Shown here in pieces: positions 8,930-32,606 of a stretch of 39,323 nt of DNA (positions within the stretch are counted from its first letter, which is position 1; every line of letters starts with the position of its first letter). The stretch lies in the IMG/VR virus record IMGVR_UViG_3300010231_000020, positions 1 through 39,323 of that record, one strand, 5' to 3'. The notes beneath the pieces were generated by a model. The model was not told the DNA's origin, did not search any database, and saw only the letters and a list, made by a program, of their open reading frames with translations. Position numbers and translations under genes: made by a program. The stretch comes from a virus. Lineage: Duplodnaviria > Caudoviricetes.

Positions 8930-8943
8930 CATTGGAGGATCGA

Positions 8944-11900
8944 ATGATCATCGGCGACATGGAAATCCGCCTGCGCGCTGACATCGCGCGCCTGCAGCGC
9001 GATATGGATGATGCCCGCCGTGTGGTCGGTGGTGCCGTGAATGGCATCGCCGAGATGGCGAAGATGGCCAGAGGTGCGTTGATTGGTATGGCCGCAGGCA
9101 TTTCGTTCGCGGCGCTCGTGCACCAGGTTGTCGATGCCCAGCGTGAGTTCGACAAGTTGAACGCCTCCCTCATCACTGCAACCGGGTCCACGGCGAACGC
9201 CGCGGTGGCGTTCAAGACGTTGCAGTCGTTCGCGTCGACGACGCCCTACAGCGTGCAGGAGGCGACCGAAGCCTTCATCAAGATGCGCAACCTTGGTCTA
9301 GACCCGTCTGAACGTGCGCTGCGTTCCTACGGCAACACGGCCGCGGCGATGGGTAAAGGCCTCAACCAGATGGTGGAGGCGGTAGCGGATGCCGCGACGG
9401 GCGAGTTCGAGCGCCTCAAAGAATTTGGCATCACAGCGAAGCAGAACGGTGACCGTGTGGCCCTGACGTTCAAGGGCATGACGGCCAATATCGGGAACAA
9501 CGCGAAAGAGATCCAAGAATATCTGCGTAAGATCGGTGAAGTGGATTTCGGCGGCGGTATGGAGTTGCGTGCGGCGACGCTCGACGGCGCGATCAGCAAC
9601 CTCGGCGATACCTGGCAGAGCGTCCTCCGTACGATTGCCGCGAACGGAATCGGCGAAGCGATGCTATCGGGCGTACTGGCTGTCAGCGGCGCCCTGCAGG
9701 ACCTGAGCGCGATTCTTGACGCCGTCGGCGGCGCGGCCGGCAAGGAAGGCCAGGCCGTGAAAGAAGCGACGGGCTTGCATGCGATCCTGACGACCACGTT
9801 CGAAGCGCTGGCAGTCGTGGGTACGAACATCGCTTACGTCTTCCAGACGATTGGCAAGGACATCGGCGCGTTCGCCGCGCAGGCCGTCACGCTGTTCAAC
9901 GGGGGATTCAAAGGCCTGATGGACGGCTCTACGCTGCAGCAGGTGCAGGATATCGGACGTGCACGTGTCGCCGAGGCCGAGGAAGAACGCAAGGCAGTCG
10001 ACGCAAAGAGCGAAGCGATTCTCGGCGCTGCGGCTAAATCGCAGGCCGCTCAGGATGCCGAGACCTCGAACCTGAAAAGGAACACGACCGATCGGCTCGC
10101 TCAGTTCCAGATCGTCTTGACGGACGAGCAGAAGCGGGACAAGGCTCTCAACGACACGCTCGAGTTGCGCAATCGCCTGAATGGAGTGAATGCCCAGACT
10201 GCCGGCGAACTGACGAAGCTCAAGAATGCGCTTGATACCGGTGCAATCAGTCAGGCCGAGTACAACCGCTACGTGGCCCAGGTGAACAAGGACGCGCGCG
10301 AGAACTCGACGGTCTACAAGAACGCGGTCAAGCAGATCGATTTGCAGACGTCTGCACTGCAGCGTCAGGCAATGGCCCGCGCGTTCGACAACCAGCAGGC
10401 CCAGCTGCAGATCGATTTCCTGAAGCGTACCGGCCAGCTGAATGACGAGGACTCGATCAACAAGTCGGCAGATGCCGACCTGAAGGCGCTGCGCGAACAG
10501 CGTGATGCGTTGGAGGCGCAGAAAAAGCTGCAAAGCGGGAAGATCGACAACCTGGCCAAGGTGAAGGAGTTGCAGGGCCAGATCGACCAAATCGGCCGAG
10601 ACGCAGATGCGCGCGAACTCAAGCGCGGCAACGATCTATTCGAGCTCGATCAGAAGCGGTATCGCGAAGCGGTCGGCAACTACGCAGATCTTCTCGAGGC
10701 AGCACAGGCGCAATCTAAAGCACAGCAGGACGCCGTGCGCGATGGGCAAGATGAGATCGACATGCTCGGAATGACGTCGAAGCAGATCGCCGACGTCACG
10801 GCCGGGCGCATGCGTGATCGCGCCGCTCTCCTCGAGTTCAATGCGGTCGTGCAGGATGCGATCGATTTGTCGGGGCAATGGGGCGATGAGAGCCGCAAGC
10901 AGGCCGCGGCGCTGCGAGCCCAGGCCGACCAGGTGATCACCAAGGAGGAAATCACTCGCCAGAAGGACCTGTGGGGCCAAGTCGAAAACACGGCTCACGA
11001 CACGTTCATCAGCATCTTCGATAGCGGCAAATCTGCCTTCGATCGATTGCGCGACACGCTGAAGAACGGATTGCTCGAGCTGCTGTATCAGATGACGGTA
11101 AAGCAGTGGGTCATTAACATCGGCGCTGCCGTATCTGGATCCGGAGGCGCCGCCGGCGCCGCGGGTAGCGCGGTGAGCAGTGGTTTCGGCAGCGCGATCG
11201 GTAACGGCCTCGGTATCACCGGCGCGCTGTCGAGTTTTGGCAGCTTCGCGGCGTCGGGCTTCATGAATACCGTTGCGGGTACCGGTCTGTCGTCCGGGCT
11301 TTCCGCAGCTGGCGCCATGATTTCGAACGGATCGGTTGCTTCTGGCTTGGGCATGGGTGCCGGCGCGCTCGGCCCGTATGCGCTTGCCGCCATAGCGATT
11401 TACTCGCTCGCGAAGGGGCTAGACCATTCGGGTACGCCGCATACCGGTGGCGCGGCCAGCGTTGACCAGTACGGGAACGCCAGCACGGTAGCGGCCGAGT
11501 CCCTCAACTTCCAGACGACGGCGGTTTCGAGCGCGACCAACCAGTTCACCGCCGGAATCGCAACGAGCGTGGTTTCGATCCTTAACAGCACCGCAGCCGC
11601 GTTCGGTCAGAAGGCCGGCTATGCGGCATCGACTGCCTTCGCGGATGATTCGTCGAGCGATGGCGCCTGGGGCGGGTTGAGGATCAGCAAAGACGGCCAG
11701 AAGGTCTTGGATTGGCAGGACGCGCGTACATCCCGCTGGGCGCCCAAGGAATTCGCGGATGGCGAAGAAGGACAAAAGCAATACCTGGCCGAAGTCAGCA
11801 AGTCAGTGCGTGCGACGCTCGACGATATCGGATTGCCTTCGTGGGCAGAAAAGATGTTGGATCAGTTGGGGGACTCTCCTGCATTGGAGGATCTGAGCAA

Positions 11901-13644
11901 GACCATCGACACGATCAATGCGACCGAAAAGGCGCTTGCGGTGATGGGCGAACGTTTGACCGGCTTCAGCTCGTTGAGCGACGACGCCGTGTCGGCCTTG
12001 ATGTCGGCGGCCGGCGGCATCGATGCGCTGGCTGCTAATGCCGGCACATACTACGACGCCTTCTACAGCGATGCCGAGAAGACAAAAGTGTTGTCCGGCC
12101 AGGTCGCTGATGCGCTGGCTAAGGTCGGGCTGGTGATGCCTGCGACGAGGGACGAGTATCGCGCCGAGGTGGAGGCTCAGATCGCATTGGGTACTTCTGG
12201 TGCGACCGGCGCGGCCGCGCTGCTTGGCGTGGCTGGTGCAATCGATCAGCTTTACCCGGCGTCCCAGTCGGCAACCAAGTCGTTGGCGCAAATTGCAGAC
12301 GAACGGAAGGGCTTGCAGGATAAGCTGGACGAGTTGACGATGACATCGTCCCAGCTGCACGAGAAGGAACGTGCAGCGATCGACGCCAGCAACCTGGCAT
12401 TGTACGACCGGGTGTCCGCGCTGCAGGCCGAGAAAGATGCGATGACGATTGTCCTCGGCAACGTGGACAACGCATTCTCGGTCCTGCAGAAAGTGGTCGA
12501 GCGGGAGAAGAAGGCCGTACAGGCGAGCGTCAATGTCCACACGGCTGCAGTAAGCAAGCTGCAAAGCCTGTCGCAGTCGTTGCGCGGTGCGCTGGACAGT
12601 ATCAAGTCGCCGGACCAGCAAGTAATGGCCCGCGCGGCCGCGCAGTCCCAGATCCGTGCGGTGCTGGCTAGTGTCAAGGCGGGCGGCCAACTGCCTGATG
12701 TGGATTCACTTAAGGATGCGCTAAGCGCGGTTTCGAAGGATTCGACGGATCGTTTTGCGACCTATCAGGACTACTTGAAGGATCTGTACCAGACGCAGAG
12801 CGATATCGCGGCGCTTGGCGATGTGACGGACGACCAGCTGTCGGTCGAGCAGAAGGCTCTGAAGGCTGCGCAGGATCAGCTCGATTCGTTGGACGAGCAG
12901 CTTGCGAAGGCCCAGGAGCAGGTCGACATCCTTAAGGGGATCAACACCAACGGGCTGACGCTGATCGATGCAGTGGCGGCCCTGACCTCTGCGGTCCTGG
13001 CTGCAAATAGCAACCCGATCGTCAGTGCCACGTCGGCCATCAACGGGGCGTACCAGTCGGCTCTACACCGCGCTCCAGATGCTGCTGGTCTGGAGTGGTG
13101 GCAAAACGCCGCCGCGAACGGCGCGCCAGTGTCGCAGATCGTCGATGGCATCAAGGGCTCGACCGAAGCTACGCTCAACACGCTCTACAAGGACGTGCTG
13201 GGTCGCGCGCCAGATGCCGAAGGGTTGGCGTTCTGGATGAAGGCGTACGGCTCGACGATGGATGAGACCGAAAAGGCAGACTGGTTGAAGGCAGCCCAGA
13301 AAGACCCGGGCTACAAGATTCCAGGCTTCGCCACCGGCGGTGATTTTGCTGGTGGTTGGCGCCTCGTTGGTGAGAACGGTCCGGAACTGGAGGCTACGGG
13401 GCCGGCGCGCATCTTCAATGCGAGCCAGACGTCCAGCCTCATGAGCCGGCTGAGCAGTCCATCGAGTAAAAACGATGCGTTGCTGGCTTCGAAGCTGGAC
13501 AAGCTATGCGCTGCTGTCGAGCGGCTCGAGCAGAGCAACAGTGTTGAGAATGTTGCTCAGGTAAAGCAGCAGCAAGCCATGAATGGTATGCTCGAGCGGG
13601 TCATTTACGGGGCGGATGCCCTGCAAACAAAGGCGGTAGCTTAA
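8944..13644 (+). CDS. Tail tape measure protein (about 1566 aa)
   Basis: Longest ORF, Ala/Gln-rich and helical. FASTTPYSVQEATEAF tape-measure domain and C-terminal FATGG...VGENGPEL. GGAGG RBS before the ATG at 8944. Confidence 0.96.
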   Translation: MIIGDMEIRLRADIARLQRDMDDARRVVGGAVNGIAEMAKMARGALIGMAAGISFAALVHQVVDAQREFDKLNASLITATGSTANAAVAFKTLQSFASTTPYSVQEATEAFIKMRNLGLDPSERALRSYGNTAAAMGKGLNQMVEAVADAATGEFERLKEFGITAKQNGDRVALTFKGMTANIGNNAKEIQEYLRKIGEVDFGGGMELRAATLDGAISNLGDTWQSVLRTIAANGIGEAMLSGVLAVSGALQDLSAILDAVGGAAGKEGQAVKEATGLHAILTTTFEALAVVGTNIAYVFQTIGKDIGAFAAQAVTLFNGGFKGLMDGSTLQQVQDIGRARVAEAEEERKAVDAKSEAILGAAAKSQAAQDAETSNLKRNTTDRLAQFQIVLTDEQKRDKALNDTLELRNRLNGVNAQTAGELTKLKNALDTGAISQAEYNRYVAQVNKDARENSTVYKNAVKQIDLQTSALQRQAMARAFDNQQAQLQIDFLKRTGQLNDEDSINKSADADLKALREQRDALEAQKKLQSGKIDNLAKVKELQGQIDQIGRDADARELKRGNDLFELDQKRYREAVGNYADLLEAAQAQSKAQQDAVRDGQDEIDMLGMTSKQIADVTAGRMRDRAALLEFNAVVQDAIDLSGQWGDESRKQAAALRAQADQVITKEEITRQKDLWGQVENTAHDTFISIFDSGKSAFDRLRDTLKNGLLELLYQMTVKQWVINIGAAVSGSGGAAGAAGSAVSSGFGSAIGNGLGITGALSSFGSFAASGFMNTVAGTGLSSGLSAAGAMISNGSVASGLGMGAGALGPYALAAIAIYSLAKGLDHSGTPHTGGAASVDQYGNASTVAAESLNFQTTAVSSATNQFTAGIATSVVSILNSTAAAFGQKAGYAASTAFADDSSSDGAWGGLRISKDGQKVLDWQDARTSRWAPKEFADGEEGQKQYLAEVSKSVRATLDDIGLPSWAEKMLDQLGDSPALEDLSKTIDTINATEKALAVMGERLTGFSSLSDDAVSALMSAAGGIDALAANAGTYYDAFYSDAEKTKVLSGQVADALAKVGLVMPATRDEYRAEVEAQIALGTSGATGAAALLGVAGAIDQLYPASQSATKSLAQIADERKGLQDKLDELTMTSSQLHEKERAAIDASNLALYDRVSALQAEKDAMTIVLGNVDNAFSVLQKVVEREKKAVQASVNVHTAAVSKLQSLSQSLRGALDSIKSPDQQVMARAAAQSQIRAVLASVKAGGQLPDVDSLKDALSAVSKDSTDRFATYQDYLKDLYQTQSDIAALGDVTDDQLSVEQKALKAAQDQLDSLDEQLAKAQEQVDILKGINTNGLTLIDAVAALTSAVLAANSNPIVSATSAINGAYQSALHRAPDAAGLEWWQNAAANGAPVSQIVDGIKGSTEATLNTLYKDVLGRAPDAEGLAFWMKAYGSTMDETEKADWLKAAQKDPGYKIPGFATGGDFAGGWRLVGENGPELEATGPARIFNASQTSSLMSRLSSPSSKNDALLASKLDKLCAAVERLEQSNSVENVAQVKQQQAMNGMLERVIYGADALQTKAVA

Positions 13645-20765: not shown

Positions 20766-20778
20766 GCCCTAAACTCCA

Positions 20779-21020
20779 GCTGAGTAAACCCGTGCGTAAT
20801 TATGGCGTAAAACGTGCGTAATGAGGAGCGAGATAAAGCGGTGAAAAGCGTGGAAGTGTCGAAGGCCACTTGACCTGTTTCTGTTCCTAAGTTGTTGATT
20901 TAACTCGGGAAGCGGGGAAAAGCGGTACATCGCGTTGCAAGCTGTTGGTGCCTCCGGCCGGAATCCAAATAATAATAAAATCAAGGGCTTATTGGGTGGC
21001 GTGAGTAATTCGTGCGTAGC
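20779..21020. other. attP region: arm repeats, IHF site, core, IHF site, arm repeats
   Basis: CGTGCGTAAT at 20791 and 20813, CGTGAGTAAT at 21000, CGTGCGTAGC at 21011. WATCAANNNNTTR matches at 20888-20900 (-) and 20979-20991 (+). Confidence 0.85.
20946..20965 (-). other. att core: 3' end of a tRNA gene (T-loop to CCA); not a full tRNA
   Basis: Minus strand reads GATT CCGGC CGGAGGC A CCA = part of the T-loop, 3' T-stem, acceptor strand, discriminator, CCA. Confidence 0.88.
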
Positions 21021-21122
21021 GTGAAAACTTTTTTTCTTATCTGTATTTTTTGCACACTAGCAACCTTTGATATGTGCATTGTAGTATTGTTTGGTGTCAT
21101 AACTACAAGGCAAGGGATTCCA

Positions 21123-21827
21123 ATGTCGAAGAGAAAGCAAAACCATATCAAACATGCTGTGGCACTGACGCTTGTAGCCGGCATGCTGCTGGGCTGCTCA
21201 GACCCGCACAAGTTCGAGATCGCGAAGTTGACTGAGGAGCAGAAGGCGGAGATGGGCAAAAAGCTCACCGCTGATGAGGGTAACAAGTTGGCAGGTTACA
21301 TCATGCGGACATCGTTCGCTGGCAAGGGCCTTCCATCCGGCGTGACCGTCGGGCAAGCCATCAAAGAGCAGGACGAGTGGATCGAAAAGGAAAAAGTCGA
21401 AGCAGCCAAGGCTGAGGAGCTGAAGAAGAAAGTTGAGGCTGAACGCAAAGCTCAGCAGGAGGCATTTGCGAAAATGCTTTCCGTTGCGCTTGTCGCGAAG
21501 CGTAATTCCACCGGAGAGTACGACCAACGCATGGTATTACTCGACTTGGCATTCGATAACAAAAGCGATAAGGACATTGCCGGGGTAAAAGGTGTGCTTC
21601 ATCTCAAGGATATGTTCGGCGACAAAATCGTGAATATTGGATGGTCGTTCGACGAAGGTGTTGGAGCTAAGCAAACTAAAGTTGAGCGGGGTAGCGGTCT
21701 TAAGATCAACCGCTTTATGGACAACGATATGAAGCTCTGGAACGCTGAGCAAGAAAAAATTACTGCGGTCTATGAGGTTAAAACGATAGTGTTTAAGGAC
21801 GGCACACGAATGGATGCTCCGGAATAA
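21123..21827 (+). CDS. Lipoprotein moron (234 aa), possible superinfection exclusion or lysogenic conversion
   Basis: Lipobox MLLG-C, coiled coil plus beta domain, lower GC, AT-rich upstream region, opposite strand to its neighbours. Confidence 0.85.
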   Translation: MSKRKQNHIKHAVALTLVAGMLLGCSDPHKFEIAKLTEEQKAEMGKKLTADEGNKLAGYIMRTSFAGKGLPSGVTVGQAIKEQDEWIEKEKVEAAKAEELKKKVEAERKAQQEAFAKMLSVALVAKRNSTGEYDQRMVLLDLAFDNKSDKDIAGVKGVLHLKDMFGDKIVNIGWSFDEGVGAKQTKVERGSGLKINRFMDNDMKLWNAEQEKITAVYEVKTIVFKDGTRMDAPE

Positions 21828-21855
21828 GGTCCTCTCAAGCTCCGTTAGATCCACG

Positions 21856-21882
21856 AAAAAAGCCACCGTATGGTGGCTTTTC
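21856..21882. terminator. Bidirectional intrinsic terminator
   Basis: AAAAAAGCCACC-GTAT-GGTGGCTTTT between convergent genes. Confidence 0.88.
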
Positions 21883-21922
21883 GATTCCGGATTTCGGAAC
21901 CGTTTCGATTCCCGCTTGTGCC

Positions 21923-22192
21923 TCAGTGTTTGTCCTGGTACTTCATCATCCACGCGAGCACGTCCTTAGCACGATAGCGAGCATGACCCCGCCCACCACT
22001 GGTTGTTGGCAGTCGGATCGCCTTAGGGAAGTCTGGTTGCGGCGCCAGGCGCTCACGTACCTGGGCTTCGCTGAGCTTCAGGCACTGCGCGATCGTTGCA
22101 ACGTCCCACACGTCGTACTCGATCGGGATCTGCGGACGGAGGCGGTCGGCTACGGCCGCGGCAAGGCGCTCGATCAGGTTGTCATCAGTCAC
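21923..22192 (-). CDS. Excisionase / AlpA-like winged-helix protein
   Basis: WDVATIAQCL.LS...V......PDFPKAIRL...RYRAKDVLAW. Last gene of the leftward operon, near attP. GTG start at 22192 with GAGGAG RBS. Confidence 0.8.
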   Translation of the reverse strand: MTDDNLIERLAAAVADRLRPQIPIEYDVWDVATIAQCLKLSEAQVRERLAPQPDFPKAIRLPTTSGGRGHARYRAKDVLAWMMKYQDKH

Positions 22193-22454
22193 GTTGCTTC
22201 TCCTCACATGCTTCGTGTTTCGTGGCTTTGATCTGGACGTTGCTGCTATCGATGCCGTCGCGGATTCCGGCCAGGTACACGATCATCGCAACCCGCCCGC
22301 CATCGTGGTACAACGTCAGCCCATTGATAAACTGATGCAGGCCCTCATGCACAACAGGCCTGGCGCAGTGTGCGGACTTGAGTAGTAGAGCCTGATGTTT
22401 GTATGCGCCTGGGTCCAGCGGCGCGACCTGGTCGGCATCAACTGGCCTGGTCAT
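22185..22454 (-). CDS. Hypothetical protein (89 aa)
   Basis: Overlap-coupled to both neighbours in the leftward operon. Confidence 0.7.
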   Translation of the reverse strand: MTRPVDADQVAPLDPGAYKHQALLLKSAHCARPVVHEGLHQFINGLTLYHDGGRVAMIVYLAGIRDGIDSSNVQIKATKHEACEEKQRD

Positions 22455-23191
22455 GCTGCCCGCCGTCCATCGAGCGGCGCCGAAGTCGGCGGCGGCTGCG
22501 TGTTCTCGTTGAAGTCGCCCATGTCGAGCCGATGCAGCAGATATTCGCGGAAGACCTCGAGCCCGCCGTTGGCGATCTCGTGAGCGATCGCGCGATAGAA
22601 ATCGCGGGGACGGGCTGGCGGCACCTCGACGACGACGAAGCGCCGGCTCCCGGTGTCGACCGGCAGAAAATCGTCACGGTTCGTGAGGTAGACGAAATTC
22701 ATGCGGTTGACGACCGAACACGGCGCATGCCCTTTGAGCGTGATCTCGAAGGATTCCGTTGCTTGATACGCTTTCATGCGATCTAAGTGTCGCGAAGAGA
22801 AGTCGCCATCGACCACCACCAGGGCTGCGCCGACCGCCCAGTAGTTGAATGTGCTGTGCAGGTCGCTCGGACGAATTTTCGCTGCGTTGTCGCCGTGAAG
22901 TGCGGCGGCAACGTGCGTGAAGAACAGGCTCTTACCGGAGCCCTGGCCGCCGTTGAATATGAGCGCAGTCGACATCTTCGAGCCCGGGTTGCGCAGCGGG
23001 TAGGCTAGCCAGCGCAGGACGTACTGTTGCATGTCATCGTCCATGTCGCACAGGTGGGCGACGAGCGTGAGGATGTTGCCGCAGTGCGCCGGTCGTGCTT
23101 GCGCCGGCGTGCTGTGCTTGTTGGGCACGCCAGTCAAAGCGTTGTACATACTGGCAAAGCGCCGCTGGATGTTCTTGATGATCTGTTTCAT
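22451..23191 (-). CDS. Stand-alone SF3/D5-like (DUF5906-type) NTPase domain, paralog of the primase-helicase C-terminus, with degenerate Walker B
   Basis: Shares LRWLAYPLRNPG.KM, GSGK, MNFV.L.N, RR and LDMGDF with 29344..32259. Walker B is VVVDG versus MVADE. Confidence 0.88.
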   Translation of the reverse strand: MKQIIKNIQRRFASMYNALTGVPNKHSTPAQARPAHCGNILTLVAHLCDMDDDMQQYVLRWLAYPLRNPGSKMSTALIFNGGQGSGKSLFFTHVAAALHGDNAAKIRPSDLHSTFNYWAVGAALVVVDGDFSSRHLDRMKAYQATESFEITLKGHAPCSVVNRMNFVYLTNRDDFLPVDTGSRRFVVVEVPPARPRDFYRAIAHEIANGGLEVFREYLLHRLDMGDFNENTQPPPTSAPLDGRRAA

Positions 23192-23199
23192 GGGTATCC

Positions 23200-23445
23200 T
23201 CAGGTTATGGTGAGCGGGTCGTTTGTACTAATGCTGGGCCAGTCGGGGTGCTGCTTCAGCCAGGGCGCAATGGTGTCCGCCAGTTCGGTCAGCGCATTGG
23301 CGTTTACGCGCAGATCCGTGGTAATCAAGTCGACGTACGCCGTGTATTGGCGCTCACGCCAGTAAGTAAGCTGTTTAGAAAGATCGCGTCGAGCGTCGAG
23401 CAGGGCTCGCGCGATCGCGCTGATCGTGTGTTCGCTAAGCTTCAT
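23200..23445 (-). CDS. Hypothetical protein (81 aa)
   Basis: ATGA overlap with parB; helical sequence. Confidence 0.7.
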   Translation of the reverse strand: MKLSEHTISAIARALLDARRDLSKQLTYWRERQYTAYVDLITTDLRVNANALTELADTIAPWLKQHPDWPSISTNDPLTIT

Positions 23446-25649
23446 GACTTCGCCTTTGCCGTCGCCGTCGCCGTCGCTTTTTTGCTGGTCGTGGCCTGGG
23501 CCTTCTTCGCCGGTGCCTGCTTCGCCTTAGCCTTTTTCTCGGGTGCAGACGTCTGCACTTCGCGATCGGTCGACGTCGGTGTCACTTCCGCCAGCTGCTC
23601 GGCGAGCTGTGCGCCTTCGTCCTGGTCTTGGGCTGGCGCCTGTTCGGCCGCCACTTGAGGAGGATCGGTTTGCTCGGTCGTTGCCGGAGTCTCTGCAGGT
23701 GCTGCAGATGGGGTCGCGTCGACCTGCTCGGCGACAGTGGTCGACAGAGTGTCCTCAGTATGTTCGGCCGTCGACGCCGACACTTTCTCGAAGTTTGTTC
23801 CGTTCCAGTTGTACCCAAAGTGGTTCGCCGCCACGGCAAGCTGGCCGGTCAAATCACCACGTGGGCTTGCGTTGATTGCGGTGTTCAGTTCGTTAATTCG
23901 GTCGGGGTTGTCCTTGAGGAATTCCATCAGGTCGTCGTACTGCATGTTGGTGACGTTGATCGAAACATGGACCGGCTCATCATTGACTATGGGTGTCTCG
24001 GGCTGAAGTGCCTCGGCGCGAATTGCGTCGACGTCGATGCCCTCATGGCGTGCCATTGCCATGATCGGTGCGAATTCGTCGTCGTCCGCGTCGCCGTGCC
24101 ACCAAGCCGCATCGAGGCGGTCACCGAGCATGAGGTCCAGCAGAAGCAGTTGCAGTGCGTTGGCGTCGGCGTGATTGATGAATTCGTCCAGGTCGGTGCG
24201 TACGTCGAAGTCGTAAAGGCTGTGTACGTCAGAATCGAGACCTCGATCGTCATGAACTGCCCGGACATACTCTCGTAGTGACAAAAGGCTGAGGCCAGCG
24301 ATACTTGCGCGTTGACGGAGCTGCTTGTAGACGGAAAGGCGGAAGGCACTTTCCTTTTCCTTTTGTGCCCGGGCCGCTGCGTGTTCCTCCGCTTCCTTCT
24401 CTCGCCTCAACTGCGCCGCCGTCTTGGTTGGCGCCAGCTCGGGATTTTCGGCAATCGACTGCATGCGTTCTGCGTGTGCTTCGACGGTTTCACAGGCGCC
24501 CACCGCCTCAAGAGCTCGCTGCACATCAGTGCGACGGTAGAAGACAATGACTTGGTCATCACCTTTCTTAGCGTATGCGGCGGCAGCGGGCAGCGTGTCG
24601 CTGTTCAGATGGTCCTTGACGTAGCCGGAGTTTCCCGTCGCAGGAGCATTGCGCTCGAAGTAGCTCAGGTGCATGTCGGCATGCACCAGCTCCGAATCCC
24701 GGCTCCATGACTTGCTGATCAAGGCGTGCATTTCGGAGGCTTCGAATATGGGAATGCCTTTTTTGTTAGCGGCCGTGATCGTTGCGTTGTAATGGGCTGC
24801 CTTCTTCTCGGCAAAGCAGTCCGGATCGGTGCATACGTTAGGGTCGATTCCTTCGAAGACCTCCGGCTGATTGCCGGCGCGCTTGGGGCATTTGACGCAT
24901 GACCCGGCCGAGGCCAGCAGCTTCGCATCGCTGAGCGAAAAAACGGCCGCTCCCAGTTTAAGCATGTAGCGATTTTGGATATGAGTGGCGGCCGCACGAT
25001 GGGACATCGTGTTGCCCTGCCAGTCCGGCGTCAGGATTTCAGTCGCGGCCTTGATCTGCAGCGCCGGCACGGGGATGCGCGCCACGAGCAAGGCGGTAGA
25101 CGCCGACAGTTTGTCGTCCAAAAACATCTCGCGGACTTCAGACGTCAGGGCGCACAGCTTGAGGCGGCCGTAGATATAAGCGCGGCTTTTCTTCACCTCG
25201 TCGACCAGCTGGTCAGCCGAGAAGCCGTGCTGCAGCATGAGTAGTTGGTAGCCTTCGGCTTCTTCCATCGGGTGAGGATCTTCGCGCTGAAGGTTCTCAA
25301 GGATGCGGATCCTGGCCGCGTCCAGATCGCTCAGCTGGCGGCACAACGCGGGGATGTGGGTTTTGCCGGCGATCTTCGATGCGCGAAACCTACGCTCTCC
25401 GGCGACGATCTCGAACTCCTCGGTCGCATCGGCGGTCGGCGTCACGGGACGGATCAGGATCGCTTGGGCGACGCCCATTGCCTTGATGCTCGCAGCCAAC
25501 TCCTGCAGCCCCTGTTCGCTGAAGCGCTTACGGTTGTCGGGCGACGCGCGCATGTTTTCGATCGCGTACAGGCCGTACGTTCCCTGGTCGCTGACGCCCG
25601 CGGCGGTGATGATTGGTTGATCGGTAGTGGCGAGTTCGGTCGAGGTCAT
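23442..25649 (-). CDS. parB: ParB/RepB/Spo0J-family protein (735 aa) with Cys cluster and Lys/Ala-rich tail
   Basis: ELAASIK..GV.Q.I.IRP, IVAGERRFRA, ENLQREDPHPMEEAEGY, HTH, CVKCPKR...CTDPDCF. Confidence 0.9.
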   Translation of the reverse strand: MTSTELATTDQPIITAAGVSDQGTYGLYAIENMRASPDNRKRFSEQGLQELAASIKAMGVAQAILIRPVTPTADATEEFEIVAGERRFRASKIAGKTHIPALCRQLSDLDAARIRILENLQREDPHPMEEAEGYQLLMLQHGFSADQLVDEVKKSRAYIYGRLKLCALTSEVREMFLDDKLSASTALLVARIPVPALQIKAATEILTPDWQGNTMSHRAAATHIQNRYMLKLGAAVFSLSDAKLLASAGSCVKCPKRAGNQPEVFEGIDPNVCTDPDCFAEKKAAHYNATITAANKKGIPIFEASEMHALISKSWSRDSELVHADMHLSYFERNAPATGNSGYVKDHLNSDTLPAAAAYAKKGDDQVIVFYRRTDVQRALEAVGACETVEAHAERMQSIAENPELAPTKTAAQLRREKEAEEHAAARAQKEKESAFRLSVYKQLRQRASIAGLSLLSLREYVRAVHDDRGLDSDVHSLYDFDVRTDLDEFINHADANALQLLLLDLMLGDRLDAAWWHGDADDDEFAPIMAMARHEGIDVDAIRAEALQPETPIVNDEPVHVSINVTNMQYDDLMEFLKDNPDRINELNTAINASPRGDLTGQLAVAANHFGYNWNGTNFEKVSASTAEHTEDTLSTTVAEQVDATPSAAPAETPATTEQTDPPQVAAEQAPAQDQDEGAQLAEQLAEVTPTSTDREVQTSAPEKKAKAKQAPAKKAQATTSKKATATATAKAKS

Positions 25650-26160: not shown

Positions 26161-26281
26161 GAGTGCATCCTTTCAACATTGTTGGAAGAGGTGCACTGAC
26201 GCTCCGTAGACATGCGGAATTGCGACATTGTGCCCTCCAGTTCGCGGCTCAATAAGTGATGAGCTGGTCACGCTGGAGAGA

Positions 26282-26323
26282 ACTATACGATTACGCATTG
26301 GTCAAGTCAATGCGAAAACGTAT
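26282..26323 (-). promoter_or_regulatory. PL-like promoter with two operators
   Basis: Minus strand TTGACT (26310-05), 17 bp, TATAGT (26287-82). Operators ATACGATTACGCAT 26285-98 and ATGCGAAAACGTAT 26310-23. Confidence 0.85.
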
Positions 26324-26421: not shown

Positions 26422-26679
26422 TTAAAAAGGTATCTCGGGCTCGGGCGGCAAGTCGAATTGCCGCCATTCGAGATCCTCGTCGGTGAGCGCATCTTCTGGG
26501 CATGGATAGCCCAGGCTCAAGAACCGCGCCGCCTCGTCCCACGCGACCAACACAACCGGCCGCATGAAGTGGATCTCAAGGCGTGCCAGCAGCTCGGCGC
26601 CCGCCGACCCGACCAACTGGGCCGCGTCGACCTGCACCGCAACGATGGGTTCAGCCAGTGGGATGATCGCGTTGTACAT
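26422..26679 (-). CDS. Small protein B of the cI operon (85 aa)
   Basis: Starts 1 nt after the stop of protein A, with an AAGG RBS. Homologous to protein A (PVVLVAWD, DLEW). Confidence 0.8.
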   Translation of the reverse strand: MYNAIIPLAEPIVAVQVDAAQLVGSAGAELLARLEIHFMRPVVLVAWDEAARFLSLGYPCPEDALTDEDLEWRQFDLPPEPEIPF

Positions 26680-26680
26680 G

Positions 26681-26956
26681 TCAGGCACCTTCTGTTTCGC
26701 AGCGCCGCTGCAACGGCGCCCATTCGATATCGCGCATGCCGAGCAGCGCATAGATGTACGGTTCGGGGTCGAACTCCGCGCGCGCGCGGATGCCCAGCCA
26801 CCCCTCGCTGTCGCGCGCCACCAACATCACCGGCGCCGAGAGTTCGTCCCGCAGCTGCTGGAGCAGGCCGCTCGCCCGAGGCTCGGACAGCGCGCGGCGC
26901 TCTACCAACACGACCGCCACACGTTCATCGCACAGGCGCTGGATCGAATACATCAT
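26681..26956 (-). CDS. Small protein A of the cI operon (91 aa)
   Basis: TGATG overlap with the cI stop; PVMLVARD and DIEW motifs. Confidence 0.8.
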   Translation of the reverse strand: MMYSIQRLCDERVAVVLVERRALSEPRASGLLQQLRDELSAPVMLVARDSEGWLGIRARAEFDPEPYIYALLGMRDIEWAPLQRRCETEGA

Positions 26957-27669
26957 CAAAACCGCTCGCTTTCCTTCCGCACGACGCGGCCGATGATCTT
27001 CGTACTTTCGTCGCACGTCCTTCTGTAATACCGGCGCTGGTCCGGATTGTCCGACGTCAGCCACCACTGGCCGGCGTCGCGCGTCAGGCGTTTCACCACT
27101 GGCTCGCCCTCGTAATTCACCGCGTACACCGTGCCGTCGACCAGCTTCTGGTCCGCCGTGTTCACCACGACCAGGTCGCCCTCATAGAACGTCGTCTCCA
27201 TGCTCTCGCCGCGCACCATGATCGCGATCAGCTTGCTGCGGTCGTACCCGTTGCGCTCGATCCATTCAGTCGGTACCGCGGCCGTAGTGCCGTCGAACGG
27301 CTCCGGCTCGATTTCGAAGCCGCTGATGCCAGCCGTAAGCCGCAAACGCACCTTTGGAATGAGAGTGAATCGCTGGTCGCCCTGGACGGCTTCCTCGACG
27401 CGCATATACGACCCCGGTTTCAAACCCTCCAGCGCGTCAGCTGGGGCGGATAGATCGCGTTCGCGAAGATCGGCCACCGACACACCAAAGTATTCGGCCA
27501 AAGGTTGCAAGGTCTTCGTCCGTGGATCGCTGCTTTCACCCGTCTGGATGCGATGGATCGTCGGTTGCGGGACGCCGGTCACGCGCTGCAGTTCGTAAGG
27601 ATTCGTCTTCCTCTGGGCCATTAGCCATTCGAGGTTCTTCGAGACGAGGGATGGAGGAGAGTTGCTCAT
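26956..27669 (-). CDS. cI: CI-like repressor, XRE HTH plus S24 autopeptidase
   Basis: HTH ELQRVTGVPQPTIHRIQTG, Ala-Gly cleavage site LTAGI, catalytic Ser (GESM) and Lys (VVKRL); divergent from cro. Confidence 0.94.
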   Translation of the reverse strand: MSNSPPSLVSKNLEWLMAQRKTNPYELQRVTGVPQPTIHRIQTGESSDPRTKTLQPLAEYFGVSVADLRERDLSAPADALEGLKPGSYMRVEEAVQGDQRFTLIPKVRLRLTAGISGFEIEPEPFDGTTAAVPTEWIERNGYDRSKLIAIMVRGESMETTFYEGDLVVVNTADQKLVDGTVYAVNYEGEPVVKRLTRDAGQWWLTSDNPDQRRYYRRTCDESTKIIGRVVRKESERF

Positions 27670-27751
27670 CCTACAAATATGCGTTAACGCATACATTCGC
27701 GCAATCCTTTATGCGTATTCGCATTGACAGCAATACGAATTCGTATAGAAT
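27669..27751. promoter_or_regulatory. OR region: three operators with PR and PRM
   Basis: ATGCGTTAACGCAT 27679-92, ATGCGTATTCGCAT 27711-24, ATACGAATTCGTAT 27733-46. PR is TTGACA (27724), 16 bp, TAGAAT (27746). PRM (-) is TTGCGC, 17 bp, CATATT. Confidence 0.88.
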
Positions 27752-28917: not shown

Positions 28918-29347
28918 GCACAACGGCCCGCGCCGCGGCAGTCTCGCATATCGCGCACTGAGCTGTTTGCATGCCCTCGGTGAAAGCGATGCCGCTGGCT
29001 GGAAAGAAGAATGCGGCTTCGGCCAATCGTCTCGGGTGTTCGATTGCGACGTGATCCAGCAGCTGCGTGTATGGCGTCTCGTGGATGGCAGAGGCGACGT
29101 GTACCTGGTTACCGCTGCCGGCCGCTCGTACTTGGGTGTCGCTCCGACGACGCCGGTGAACAATGCGCCGCCCGCGTCGGGCCCGTACGTACCGCCGAAG
29201 CTGCCGCTGTCGCCGCGGAATCGTCCGGCTTTGCGTGGCATGCGGCCCGGTGCATTCGACTACCGCGACATCCCGTCTGTGCTCGCAGGCCGGCCGGTCG
29301 CGTACCGCAGCAGCATTACCGTCGAAGGCGAGGGCGTCACTGAATGA
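28904..29347 (+). CDS. Hypothetical protein (147 aa), possible winged helix
   Basis: GGAGG RBS; Y.VT.AGR motif; ATGA overlap with the primase gene. Confidence 0.72.
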   Translation: MAASKHNGPRRGSLAYRALSCLHALGESDAAGWKEECGFGQSSRVFDCDVIQQLRVWRLVDGRGDVYLVTAAGRSYLGVAPTTPVNNAPPASGPYVPPKLPLSPRNRPALRGMRPGAFDYRDIPSVLAGRPVAYRSSITVEGEGVTE

Positions 29348-32259
29348 GCGATGTAGGCCAGGTAGTAGCGCAGATGGCGGAATACGGAATGCCGCCTCTG
29401 CCAGCGAATCACCCCGTCCTGGACGGCAAGTTCAAACGATTCGGCCCGAAGAAGAAGGGCTGGTATATCTTGCGCGAACTGAAGCTGCGCACCGGCCGCG
29501 TGGTCGTGACCGGCGCCTTCGGCTTCTTCCAAGGCGAGAACCGCAACACGGTGCCTGTCAAGGTCGACGTCGAAACGATGTCAGCCGACGAGCGAGCCGA
29601 GTACGTTCGCCAGCAGCGCGCTGCCGAAAAGGCCGAAGAGGAAAAGCGCGACCAAGAAGTGCGGCTCGCTGCGAACCGCGCACGCGACCAGTGGAGCAAA
29701 GGCGAGGGTGTTCCTGTAGAGCATCCCTACCTGGTGCGCAAGCAGGTCGCGGCCGAAGGCCTGCGCGTCACACCCGACGGCAAGCTGCTGATGATCCCCC
29801 TCGTGCGCGATGGTCAACTGCTCGGCCTGCAGAAGATCGACCCGGCCGGCGACAAGAAGCTCAACAGCGGCATGGATGCGATCGGCGTCGCCCACGTGCT
29901 GGGCAAGCTGGCCGGCGCCCCGATCGTCGCGATCGGCGAAGGCTATGCCACCTGTGCCAGTGCGCGCAAGGCCGTCATAGAGTGGTACGACCTTCCGGTC
30001 GTCATGGCTCTGAATGCTGGCAACCTGGTGCACGTCGCGCGGCTGCTGCGCAAGCGATATCCGGATGCGCACCTGCTCTTCCTGGCTGACGACGACTATC
30101 TGCTCGTCGAGCGGTTCGCCGAGCGGCTGCTCGAGGACTTCGGCGTGTCCGTCGAGGTGCCAATCGACGGCGTGTCGCACACGGTACGCGCCGACGACGG
30201 CGAGGCCGTCGACGTGCTGGCTCGCTGGCGTGAGGACGCGCAGGGCATTCGCTACATCGAGGCTGACATGCGCAAGGGCCGTCTCGTGCGCACGCCGACA
30301 TTCAAGAACGCCGGCGTCTCCAGCAGTCACGCGGCGGCCGCCGAAGTCGGAAACGCGTCGGTGGCCGTGCCGGCGTTCGCCGTCGATCGCGCTGGCCGCA
30401 AACTCACGGACTACAACGACCTGCAGATCGAGGAAGGGCCGGAGTCCGTAGCAGCGCAGGTTCGTCGTTCCATCCTCGCTGCGCAGCAGCGCAATACCGA
30501 GCCCACCGCCCCTGAATCCGCGCAAGCGGCCGAGGCGGCGCTGGAGCCTGCTGCCGACCCTCTCCTCGCTGCGGAGCAGCGCTCATCCTTTCCTCCCGCC
30601 CCACCCGCGCAAGCGGCCGCGGTGGGCGATGAGCCTGCGGCGACTCCCACTTTCGCTGCGGATCAGCGTCCAATCGATCCTCCCTCCGCCCCACCCGCGC
30701 ACGCGGTCGACGCCGAAGGTGTTCCCCCCGCCCCCCTCGGTGCGGAGCGGCCAGGAGAAGGGGCGGACAGCGCCGTACCTGACGATTTTGACGATCGGTA
30801 CGGCGCGGAGGATGGAATGTCGAATGTGGTGCCGCTGAACGCGAAGATGTACCCGCCGAAGGCATCAGGCTCCGCTCCCGCGCGGGGGGAGGGGGAGGAC
30901 GTCGACGACGGCGAGAAGCCCGCAAAGGAGAAGCCCAAGAAGGTGTACGGGCCCGAGCATTGGGACAAGGTCAACGACATCCTCGAGAACTTCGTCCTGA
31001 TCTACGGCGAGGACATGGTGTGGGACTGCCGGCATCGCATGCTGATGCGCATCTCGGCTATGCGCACGATCGTCGGTAACAGCGACGTGATGAAGTTCTG
31101 GAGCGGCGACGCCCGGCGCTGGGTCCTGAAGAAAAACATCGTGTTCGATCCGAGCGACACACCGTCACCGGCCGAGAGCGGCCCGACGGCAACCGTCAAT
31201 CTCTTCAATGGCTGGCCGATGAGGCCGAAGAAGGGCGCGTGCTTCCAGATCCAACTGCTGCTGCATCACCTGTGCGACGGTAACCACGAGCTGACGACCT
31301 GGATCCTGCGTTGGCTGGCCTACCCGTTGCGCAACCCGGGCGCCAAGATGGAAACTTCGATCATCATGCACGGCGACGAGGGCTCCGGTAAGAACTTCTT
31401 CTTCGAGCGCGTGGTCAAGCCGATCTACGGCGACTACGGCTACGTGATCGGCAACGACCAGCTCGAGAGCAAATTCAACGACTGGGCGTCGATGAAGCTG
31501 TTCATGGTGGCCGACGAGGTCGTCACCCGCGCCGAGCTCAAGCAAATGAAGGGCAAGCTCAAGGGCCTGATCTCGGGTGACACCGTGATCGTCAACCCGA
31601 AGGGCCTGCCCGAGCACGTCGAGAAGAATCAGATGAATTTCGTGTTCCTGTCGAATGAGCTGCAGCCGCTCGCCCTAGACAAGACCGATCGACGTTACCT
31701 GGTCGTGTGGACGCCGCCGGCGATGCCCCGGGAGTTTTACCAGGGCGTGGCGGACGAGATCCGCGAGGGGGGTATCGAGGCGTTCTACTACCACCTCATG
31801 CACGAGCTGGACATGGGTGACTTCGACCAGCACACGAAGCCGATCTACAACGAGGCGAAGGACAAGCTAATCGAGAAGAGCCTGGCGCCCTCCGAGCGCT
31901 TCTACCGCGAATGGTCCGGCGGCTTCCTCCCGCTGCCGTTTATCACTGTCTCGGTGAACCAGCTGTTCGACGCGTTCAGGGTGTGGTGCACCCGGTCGGG
32001 CGAACCGACGTATACGTCGATGACGAAGTTCAGCCCGGAGATCGAGCGATACGCCGGCGGCACACTGAAAAAGAAGCTCATCAAGTACGAACTCGGGGAA
32101 GAGGTCAAGCAGCGCATGGTGTTCATGGTCGGCGACCTGCCCGACGGGCGAACGCTGGCCGACTGGTGTGAGGCCTGTAGCGCCGTCTTCAGCAAGCACT
32201 ACCAGTCCTACCGGAGCCGTGGCGGTGGATTCGACCAAGGCGCCGATGTTAACGGTTGA
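29344..32259 (+). CDS. Primase-helicase (TOPRIM plus SF3/D5-like NTPase), P4 alpha-like replication protein
   Basis: HPYL.RK, IGEGYAT, ADDD and TDYNDL primase motifs. Walker A GDEGSGKN, Walker B MVADE, FLSN and DRRY. Confidence 0.94.
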   Translation: MSDVGQVVAQMAEYGMPPLPANHPVLDGKFKRFGPKKKGWYILRELKLRTGRVVVTGAFGFFQGENRNTVPVKVDVETMSADERAEYVRQQRAAEKAEEEKRDQEVRLAANRARDQWSKGEGVPVEHPYLVRKQVAAEGLRVTPDGKLLMIPLVRDGQLLGLQKIDPAGDKKLNSGMDAIGVAHVLGKLAGAPIVAIGEGYATCASARKAVIEWYDLPVVMALNAGNLVHVARLLRKRYPDAHLLFLADDDYLLVERFAERLLEDFGVSVEVPIDGVSHTVRADDGEAVDVLARWREDAQGIRYIEADMRKGRLVRTPTFKNAGVSSSHAAAAEVGNASVAVPAFAVDRAGRKLTDYNDLQIEEGPESVAAQVRRSILAAQQRNTEPTAPESAQAAEAALEPAADPLLAAEQRSSFPPAPPAQAAAVGDEPAATPTFAADQRPIDPPSAPPAHAVDAEGVPPAPLGAERPGEGADSAVPDDFDDRYGAEDGMSNVVPLNAKMYPPKASGSAPARGEGEDVDDGEKPAKEKPKKVYGPEHWDKVNDILENFVLIYGEDMVWDCRHRMLMRISAMRTIVGNSDVMKFWSGDARRWVLKKNIVFDPSDTPSPAESGPTATVNLFNGWPMRPKKGACFQIQLLLHHLCDGNHELTTWILRWLAYPLRNPGAKMETSIIMHGDEGSGKNFFFERVVKPIYGDYGYVIGNDQLESKFNDWASMKLFMVADEVVTRAELKQMKGKLKGLISGDTVIVNPKGLPEHVEKNQMNFVFLSNELQPLALDKTDRRYLVVWTPPAMPREFYQGVADEIREGGIEAFYYHLMHELDMGDFDQHTKPIYNEAKDKLIEKSLAPSERFYREWSGGFLPLPFITVSVNQLFDAFRVWCTRSGEPTYTSMTKFSPEIERYAGGTLKKKLIKYELGEEVKQRMVFMVGDLPDGRTLADWCEACSAVFSKHYQSYRSRGGGFDQGADVNG
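30544..30709 (+). repeat. Degenerate ~87-bp tandem duplication in the primase-helicase linker
   Basis: GAGCCTGC...TCGCTGCGGA.CAGCG...CCGCCCCACCCGCGCA.GCGG.CG at 30544-30619 and 30631-30709. Confidence 0.8.
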
Positions 32260-32504
32260 CCATTCACATTCCGCAGACCATTCACATGCATAAGTCATTG
32301 AAAGAAAAGGAGATGTTAACGGTGTGAACGGTATGAAAGGTCTCTCTATATGTGTGCGCGTGCGCGAGAAGCGGCGCAATGAAATTAATAGTCCAAATCA
32401 GACTGAACGAGAAGATCAAATAACCATTCATACCCTTCACATCGTTAATAAAGATAAAAAAAACAAAGGGTTACGGATGTTAAGGATATGAATCGTGTGA
32501 AGGG
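32247..32504. other. Putative replication origin: 9-bp iterons T[GA]T[GT]AANGG in both orientations
   Basis: About 12 copies: 32247(+), 32260(-), 32278(-), triplet 32314/23/32(+), triplet 32424/33/42(-), triplet 32478/87/96(+). AT-rich and directly after the primase-helicase. Confidence 0.8.
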
Positions 32505-32606
32505 TTAAGTAAAAAGATGAGTAATCGGGGCGGTTCGATAGCAGCAACGAAGGACGGATGGGCGATACAGGGCGCCGGGATAACTGAAAGGGTAGCGATG
32601 GGAGCA

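Follow-up and report, generated by a model that had tools for sequence, protein, structure and literature searches.

A family of stand-alone SF3 pseudo-helicases in temperate phages and its possible use against rival replicative helicases

Why would a phage that encodes a complete replicative primase-helicase also carry a second, much shorter gene for the motor domain alone? The question arises from a 39,323-nt viral stretch of DNA (hereafter the window), a temperate phage of lambdoid layout with capsid, tail, integrase, CI repressor with S24 peptidase, CII-like and terminase genes. Its full-length primase-helicase (29344..32259, plus strand) is a 971-aa protein of the DUF5906 type with intact motifs, as judged by motif and profile comparison. 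A minus-strand gene at 22451..23191 encodes a 246-aa protein, here P0001, which a first-pass annotation made from the sequence alone had described as a truncated, Walker-B-defective copy of that helicase. Three roles were offered: tuning the phage's own replication, blocking competing phages or satellites, or acting as a decoy for helicase-sensing defences.

By sequence, the similarity of P0001 to the 971-aa motor is far beyond chance. BLASTP aligned residues 29–233 of P0001 with residues 625–833 of the larger protein in one collinear block (85/209 identities, 41%, E 2e-50), interrupted by a single 4-residue gap just after Walker B; the match is to the NTPase domain only, as first described, and all of the motif pairs then quoted are present. 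About 30 residues precede the aligned block and 13 follow it. At the DNA level, similarity is confined to 191 nt at 74% and 131 nt at 69%, in line with the divergence claimed earlier. The reading frame is intact and led by a ribosome-binding site, GAGGA (23197..23201, minus strand), which lies 5 nt before the ATG and overlaps the stop codon of the upstream ORF. Both proteins match PF19263 (DUF5906), P0001 with an E-value of 6e-12 and 46.6 bits against a cut-off of 27.6. The AlphaFold model of P0001 (pLDDT 89) has an SF3 AAA+ fold; its best fold match is the helicase of the NrS-1 polymerase (Foldseek E 2.4e-11, TM 0.63), whose helicase domain is also the best profile match (E 3.4e-18).

Comparison with this closest known system (DUF5906/PF19263; PDB 6K9C, 6K9E, 6LRB) defines what P0001 is. 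The Walker A Lys, the hairpin Lys and the Arg pair align, but NrS-1 also has a Head ring, a Tail ring and a primase, according to its published domain description (PMC7102993), whereas P0001 corresponds to the NrS-1 "Body" alone. The primase and C-terminal parts are thus absent, as the first-pass annotation held. Two further differences are a basic amphipathic helix added at the N-terminus and the replacement of the Walker B Glu by Gly. By translation, Walker B reads VVVDGD in P0001 (22802..22819, minus strand) and MVADE (MVADEV) in the 971-aa protein (31504-31518), with Gly129 aligned to Glu725; the 4-residue deletion that follows falls in the helix of the DNA-binding loop. P0001 also has an acid, Asp130, one residue past Gly129, on which the earlier annotation was silent. 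In public DNA runs, record 3 of X1 (possibly the source sample) spans the Walker B codons with 0 differing letters, and the contig of X2 record 10 spans them with 1 differing letter somewhere along the contig. Both are DNA runs and carry no information on expression; among the runs listed as containing the sequence there was no RNA run. The full-length DUF5906 primase-helicases of the same phages (PHROG 2249, 4762, 1156) share 38-44% identity with the short form over the motor domain and have the same helical motifs, but they form a separate branch.

P0001 belongs to a family, of which a single search retrieved 105 stand-alone homologues, almost all of them 235–278 aa long, with Massilia and Duganella as the named sources, and the short forms among the best 150 matches of a profile search fall into 44 clusters at 50% identity. 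After removal of 18 duplicate short rows and a contig fragment, the fetched loci gave 45 distinct short domains and 56 long ones; on their tree, a single branch with support 100/99 parts short from long forms, and the short forms have long branches. A tree of the diverse set (best 150) placed 38 short forms in one clade (SH 97), while P0160 and P0225 nested among long forms; one may be no more than a fragment and the other a truncation that arose independently. P0225, 220 aa long with a degenerate Walker B, is a possible independent origin of the same truncation. Among cultured phages, 393 records match P0001, all below 60% identity and in one place each; plasmids gave 3 weak matches and an ESM Atlas search gave DUF5906 clusters only. 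For the distant half, a search with a single protein found no loci and a cluster look-up returned Duganella as the sole name (1/10); our locus, neighbour and host data accordingly cover the near part of the family.

From these sequences, the family is old, holds its own branch and is under purifying selection. It is a variant within the SF3 helicases rather than a functional member, given its altered Walker B and lack of Head/collar and Tail. We found no account of such a family in searches of openly available full texts, although genome-annotation supplements could mention these genes; the family is real and conserved, and apparently undescribed as a family. Its database annotations, "primase-helicase" or "hypothetical", have hidden it in plain sight. 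Pseudo-enzymes are familiar from eukaryotes but have seldom been described in phages.

To establish which motor residues were lost and which were kept, we tallied two sets. The near set comprised 104 short homologues, leaving out P0001, P0002 and the fragment P0104. The diverse set comprised 50%-identity representatives among the best 150 of the profile search (44 short and 104 long, with 2 unclassed proteins omitted from the tallies), and all diverse and long-form counts refer to these best 150. The Walker A Lys, Walker B Glu and sensor Asn occur together in 104/104 long forms, as against 1/44 diverse short forms (P0160) and 1/104 near ones. Walker B Glu by itself is present in all 104 long forms, 3/104 near and 9/44 diverse short forms; whether its loss is conserved was a check proposed for the earlier reading, and by these alignments that loss is a trait of the family, though not a universal one.

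The other catalytic positions are unevenly preserved. In P0001 the Walker A motif GGQGSGKS (22928..22951) is intact, with Lys87; this Lys is found in 34/44 diverse short forms and lost in 10/44, and has undergone at least 4 changes on the tree. The motif C sensor Asn171 (22679..22681) is present in P0001 and missing from most of the family (kept in 11/104 near and 10/44 diverse short forms), and the β-hairpin Lys153 (22733..22735; NrS-1 K525), also present, is lost in about half (kept in 23/44 diverse short forms). Residues that would face a neighbouring subunit are preserved far more uniformly. Lys or Arg occupies the position of Lys72 (22976..22978) in 44/44 diverse short and 104/104 long forms, and that of Lys140 (22772..22774) in 42/44 and 104/104. 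Within the arginine-finger pair Arg183-Arg184 (22640..22645; NrS-1 R555/R556; all motifs on the minus strand), R183 is kept in 39/44 diverse short forms, and R184 in 42/44 of these and 100/104 near ones. Lys72 is likely a trans-acting "lysine finger", a role we assume from SV40 LTag K418 and BPV E1 K425, and Lys140 likely a trans-acting basic residue of motif B', presumably the counterpart of LTag R498 and E1 R493. In each of the two sets, K72, K140 and R184 persist in 9 of the 10 members without the Walker A Lys. The segment from Walker B to K140 spans 17 residues in 103/104 long forms, 13 in 96/104 near short forms and 13-14 in 33/44 diverse short forms.

Mutants of related helicases give these positions meaning. 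In C962R, the Arg pair touches the nucleotide from the neighbouring monomer, and the E692A, N737A and Arg mutants lost ATPase activity (PMC10516667); in NrS-1, unwinding was lost in K453A, K525A, R555A and R556A (PMC7102993). The residue pattern fits a nucleotide-binding subunit unable to hydrolyse or translocate, much as the first reading of P0001 had proposed, and it fits a natural dominant-negative (poison) subunit. Engineered Walker B mutants, which are laboratory constructs, poison AAA+ rings; AAV Rep40/52 and T7 gp4B are truncated yet active helicase isoforms encoded inside the replicase gene; and Hda is an arginine-finger donor acting on DnaA. As in the reading suggested for P0001, a dead or truncated subunit acts on an active ATPase in these systems, but to our knowledge none is the product of a mobile, naturally occurring pseudo-SF3 gene in its own right.

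Where a Head/collar would lie, the structure model of P0001 has an N-terminal basic amphipathic helix (residues 2-19; 23135..23188, minus strand) with a net charge of +4 and a hydrophobic moment of 0.63, a moment reached by 0/200 shuffles. Throughout the short family, the 20-57 residues ahead of a conserved Cys form such a helix, poorly conserved in sequence. It beats shuffles (p <= 0.05) in 77/102 near homologues, 3 with short extensions having been skipped, and the median moment is 0.51 in near homologues versus 0.31 at the starts of 25 other window proteins. In the best 150, the helix is found in 21/39 diverse short forms versus 7/100 same-place linkers of long forms. These features suggest that the helix binds membrane; possibly it is a protein-binding helix instead. 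At the opposite end, 73/106 family members terminate in -AA (window 22451-22470), which may be a degradation tag of the ClpXP type or a by-product of the ATGA gene overlap.

The relation of the short gene to its phage's own replicase is looser than the first-pass annotation supposed. P0001 had been taken for a copy of the phage's own helicase, but short and long forms are separate branches, and the window long protein ranks only 34/55 in similarity to the window short protein; in 23 pairs, the own long form of a short protein stands at a mean relative rank of 0.65. A recent duplicate or pseudogene of the own replicase is rejected by the same ranking and by the dN/dS of the window's six closest short pairs (0.095-0.19). 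Constant company with a full-length primase-helicase, also predicted, was not observed either. The 45 distinct short genes divide into 24 with a DUF5906 replicase, 17 with the unrelated VapE (PF05272), 3 on fragments and 1, in the complete phage G017, beside a lambda-O-like initiator that was the only replication gene found; the G017 copy is degraded, with one Arg lost. DUF5906 and VapE replicases share about 20% identity over 81 aa, and P0001 shares about 27% over 125 aa with VapE versus 41% with DUF5906. On the tree of short and long domains, the starred branches require the VapE label to have changed at least 7 times. In replicase-anchored scans, the short gene was present in 10/17 informative VapE contigs (27 found, less the query, one duplicate and 8 truncated ones) and 6/10 DUF5906 contigs (16 found, less 6 truncated ones), and it was absent from five DUF5906 records at 91-100% completeness (G026, G029, G031, G036, G042).

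Selection on the gene was estimated from close pairs (dN < 0.15 and dS > 0.1), which are not independent of one another. The median dN/dS was 0.171 in 25 VapE-VapE pairs, 0.151 in 23 mixed pairs and 0.172 in 6 DUF-DUF pairs, compared with 0.143 in 950 pairs of long forms; these values lie far below 1, and the gene is maintained, as the first-pass annotation had anticipated. Distant pairs (medians 0.32-0.72, up to 1.16) were set aside because dS saturates. The short gene is independent of its phage's replicase type. It is selected just as strongly where a cognate replicase is missing, so that a target supplied in cis is not required, and the lack of kinship with the own long form, together with carriage beside VapE and O-like genes, makes tuning of the own replicase the weakest of the three roles.

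P0001 lies in a leftward operon. An 81-aa ORF (23200..23445) with no assigned function, which is confined to the close clade (duplicates included, it occurs in 37 loci that have the short gene and 3 that lack it), and a 735-aa ParB-like protein (23442..25649) are encoded upstream, and an 89-aa ORF (22185..22454) is coupled downstream via the ATGA overlap, all on the minus strand. A superinfection-exclusion gene active in the lysogen would be expected to have a promoter outside repressor control. The nearest upstream consensus promoters are a PL-type promoter at 26310 and a weak one at 26176; none was found between 26149 and 23191, in a consensus scan that can miss promoters. The leftward PL-type promoter (26310-26282; 26282..26323 in all, minus strand) is overlapped by palindromes ATRCG-N4-CGYAT at 26285-26298 and 26310-26323, which are likely CI operators, and three further copies accompany a rightward PR-type promoter (27724-27751; 27679..27751 in all, plus strand). 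Exact copies fall at these PL and PR sites in 5/6 cases versus 0.19 expected, a generous comparison in that the pattern was drawn from these same sites, and with one mismatch allowed the count was not above chance. A CI-like repressor with HTH and peptidase S24 domains is encoded at 26956..27696 (minus strand). Because both promoters are overlapped by the shared palindrome, we infer that P0001 is CI-repressed, early on induction and not expressed in the lysogen. Iteron-like direct and inverted repeats with 9-nt spacing (32245..32505) mark a likely origin and match the one first proposed at 32247-32504.

The explanation we favour, tentatively and on sequence evidence, is that P0001 acts as a one-faced "ring cap": it would dock on DUF5906 helicases, mainly those of co-induced rival prophages, and keep their rings from closing. 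The protein would be CI-repressed, be made early after induction, and offer K72, K140, R183 and R184 to an active subunit at its ATP site. Its own site would be unable to hydrolyse and, with neither pore grip nor collar, the ring could not extend or translocate; through the amphipathic helix, the stalled complex would remain tethered to the membrane. Several features point this way: the asymmetric decay, in which the catalytic trio is lost while K72, K140 and R184 are kept; the loss of the collar and apparently of pore elements; the palindromes common to PL and PR; and the presence of long forms in many host-family genomes. Matches were found in 42/401 such genomes, 11 of them with a short form; one of these 11, G136, is an unpublished genome that enters no other count. 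Of the five host genomes examined, three have a further prophage, unlinked to the first, whose replicase is of the DUF5906 type and whose CI is of the S24 type, so that co-induced targets exist. Blocking of rival helicases would give phages a new means of conflict with one another, and the clean split between lost catalytic and kept neighbour-facing residues lends itself to a sharp and cheap test.

Several observations count against such blocking. The gene is not depleted in DUF5906 phages (6/10 vs 10/17), as a weapon should be unless self is spared; to escape its effect, these phages would depend on specificity or dose, and no self-immunity mechanism was found. The trans-face residues may serve folding or homo-oligomers rather than a partner, collar loss may weaken docking, and in one host genome (G052) the short gene occurs with no long DUF5906 protein to serve as target. 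The window copy, with K87, D128, D130, K153 and N171 in place, may also have residual ATPase activity. The anti-satellite version of the idea is without direct support, as each of the three co-resident DUF5906 elements is a complete prophage and not a satellite; DUF5906 is used in satellite models (PMC10803314, PMC10111431).

A less probable alternative is an immune decoy or sponge, in which P0001 mimics a nucleotide-bound replicative helicase and soaks up a host defence sensor or a nucleotide signal. The mimic might be a homo-oligomer locked with ATP at the membrane, and it would protect the phage whatever its replicase. Equal carriage with both replicase types, patchy presence, the early-operon position and the fast divergence evident from long branches would all be explained. 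For some defence systems phage escape mutations are reported in primase-helicase genes (10.1101/2022.08.27.505566), and a retron triggered by phage helicases requires their catalytic activity (PMC12746101); a dead mimic might bind without triggering. However, UvsW and D10, the helicases concerned, lie outside SF3. In VapE phages, a decoy would be expected to drift towards VapE surfaces, yet the short proteins stay DUF5906-like, and the trans-face residues persist after loss of the P-loop Lys, a pattern that an ATP-locked homo-ring does not predict. If a decoy nonetheless, P0001 would point to an as yet unseen defence sensor of SF3 replicases.

It seems unlikely that P0001 modulates the replication of its own phage, whether by braking, loading or anchoring to the membrane an SF3 replicase of one type or the other. 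The gene is likely co-induced with the replicase, and 41/45 distinct short genes do accompany some SF3 replicase. Against this stand the absence of co-evolution with the own long form, the repeated switches between two dissimilar replicase types, the presence in an O-like phage (albeit as a degraded copy) and the absence from near-complete DUF5906 records.

We consider it more doubtful still that P0001 has been neofunctionalised as an arginine-finger donor to a host AAA+ protein, in the way that Hda acts on DnaA, or as a partner of the neighbouring ParB-like protein. Such a target would explain replicase independence, trans-face retention and the membrane helix. A ParB-like gene lies within 3 kb of the short gene in 32/45 loci, and one directly follows the 147-aa gene described below in 3/4 phages. 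However, relatives that lack the short gene often have ParB-like genes too, on which ground a specific partnership was rejected; the three rhizobiophages are one genus; DUF5906-specific motifs are kept; and host initiators sit in another AAA+ clade. No strict partner gene emerged among the neighbours in the fetched loci, and the largest neighbour-gene cluster was an artefact of overlapping frames.

A still-active NTPase with its acid shifted one place (D-G-D/E) is very unlikely. The window copy retains K87, D130 and N171 along with both Arg, and an acid occupies position 130 in 50/104 near homologues; in diverse forms (best 150), the same acid is found in just 5/44, in addition to the losses of sensor Asn and Walker A Lys given above. 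A decaying remnant of a duplicated or displaced replicase is largely refuted: the gene is accessory and a few copies are damaged (L028, for example, has a read-through and a lost Arg), but dN/dS is 0.10-0.24 in the 48 VapE-VapE and mixed pairs and 0.095-0.51 in the 6 DUF-DUF pairs, and the family has uniform length, conserved ends and a new N-terminal helix.

A fold search of viral proteins returned matches of 146-160 aa that define a second class. Stand-alone SF3 cores of about 147 aa with altered Walker B are encoded by the lytic rhizobiophages 7-7-1 (gp27), Milano (gp50), OLIVR4 (gp31) and RHph_Y5A (gp8), in genes of 146-148 aa at L176:22575-23018 (JQ312117 gp27), L179:3501-3947, L181:3501-3944 and L178:3995-4435. 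By alignment, the Walker A Lys and the Arg pair are kept in 4/4 and the second Walker B acid is replaced in 4/4, likenesses shared with P0001; unlike P0001, these proteins are about 100 aa shorter, at 23-30% identity, and are without helical flanks or amphipathic helix. The ParB-like gene that follows in three of the phages is ParB/Noc-like, and the class itself is annotated as hypothetical or P-loop protein only. Two candidates, H38 and H43, were rejected since both lie inside full-length genes. A broader reading, only a little less probable than the ring cap itself, is that phages have repeatedly made the SF3 motor a membrane-tethered weapon of this capping kind, used against other phages at the replication step in polylysogens. 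There would be at least two such classes, one of about 245 aa in temperate phages of the Massilia group and one of 147 aa in lytic rhizobiophages. Phage 7-7-1 gp27 provides a cultured model for the shorter class.

Other features of these phages emerged alongside. Closely related Massilia-group phages swap VapE and DUF5906 replicases wholesale (L001:1686-4226 vs window 29344-32259); in G012 (L017/L128) a window-type primase is joined to a VapE motor, and some primase-helicases contain an inserted FtsK gamma-like domain (L004:938-3988, L128:1-1560). The ParB-like proteins can be very long, at 650-790 aa (window 23442-25649, L001:7488-9752), and that of L001 carries an H-NS C-terminal domain. Leftward operons beside the short gene include PRTRC cassette genes (protein F, A, ThiF; L017:6484-9897, L028:5731-9245), and the early leftward operon of several relatives encodes a reverse transcriptase (RVT_1, 476-483 aa; L022:8509-9960, L025:6771-8204, L026:6465-7904, with further copies at L029:3093-4523, L024:12718-14148 and L034:8542-9990), often adjoining a cytosine methylase. 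In the window, a 109-aa ORF after CI (26422-26751), found in no other fetched locus, is followed by a terminator, small unassigned ORFs occupy 20769-21953 between an excisionase-like gene and the integrase, and the 1570-aa tape measure protein (8932-13644) has DUF4214 repeats near its C-terminus.
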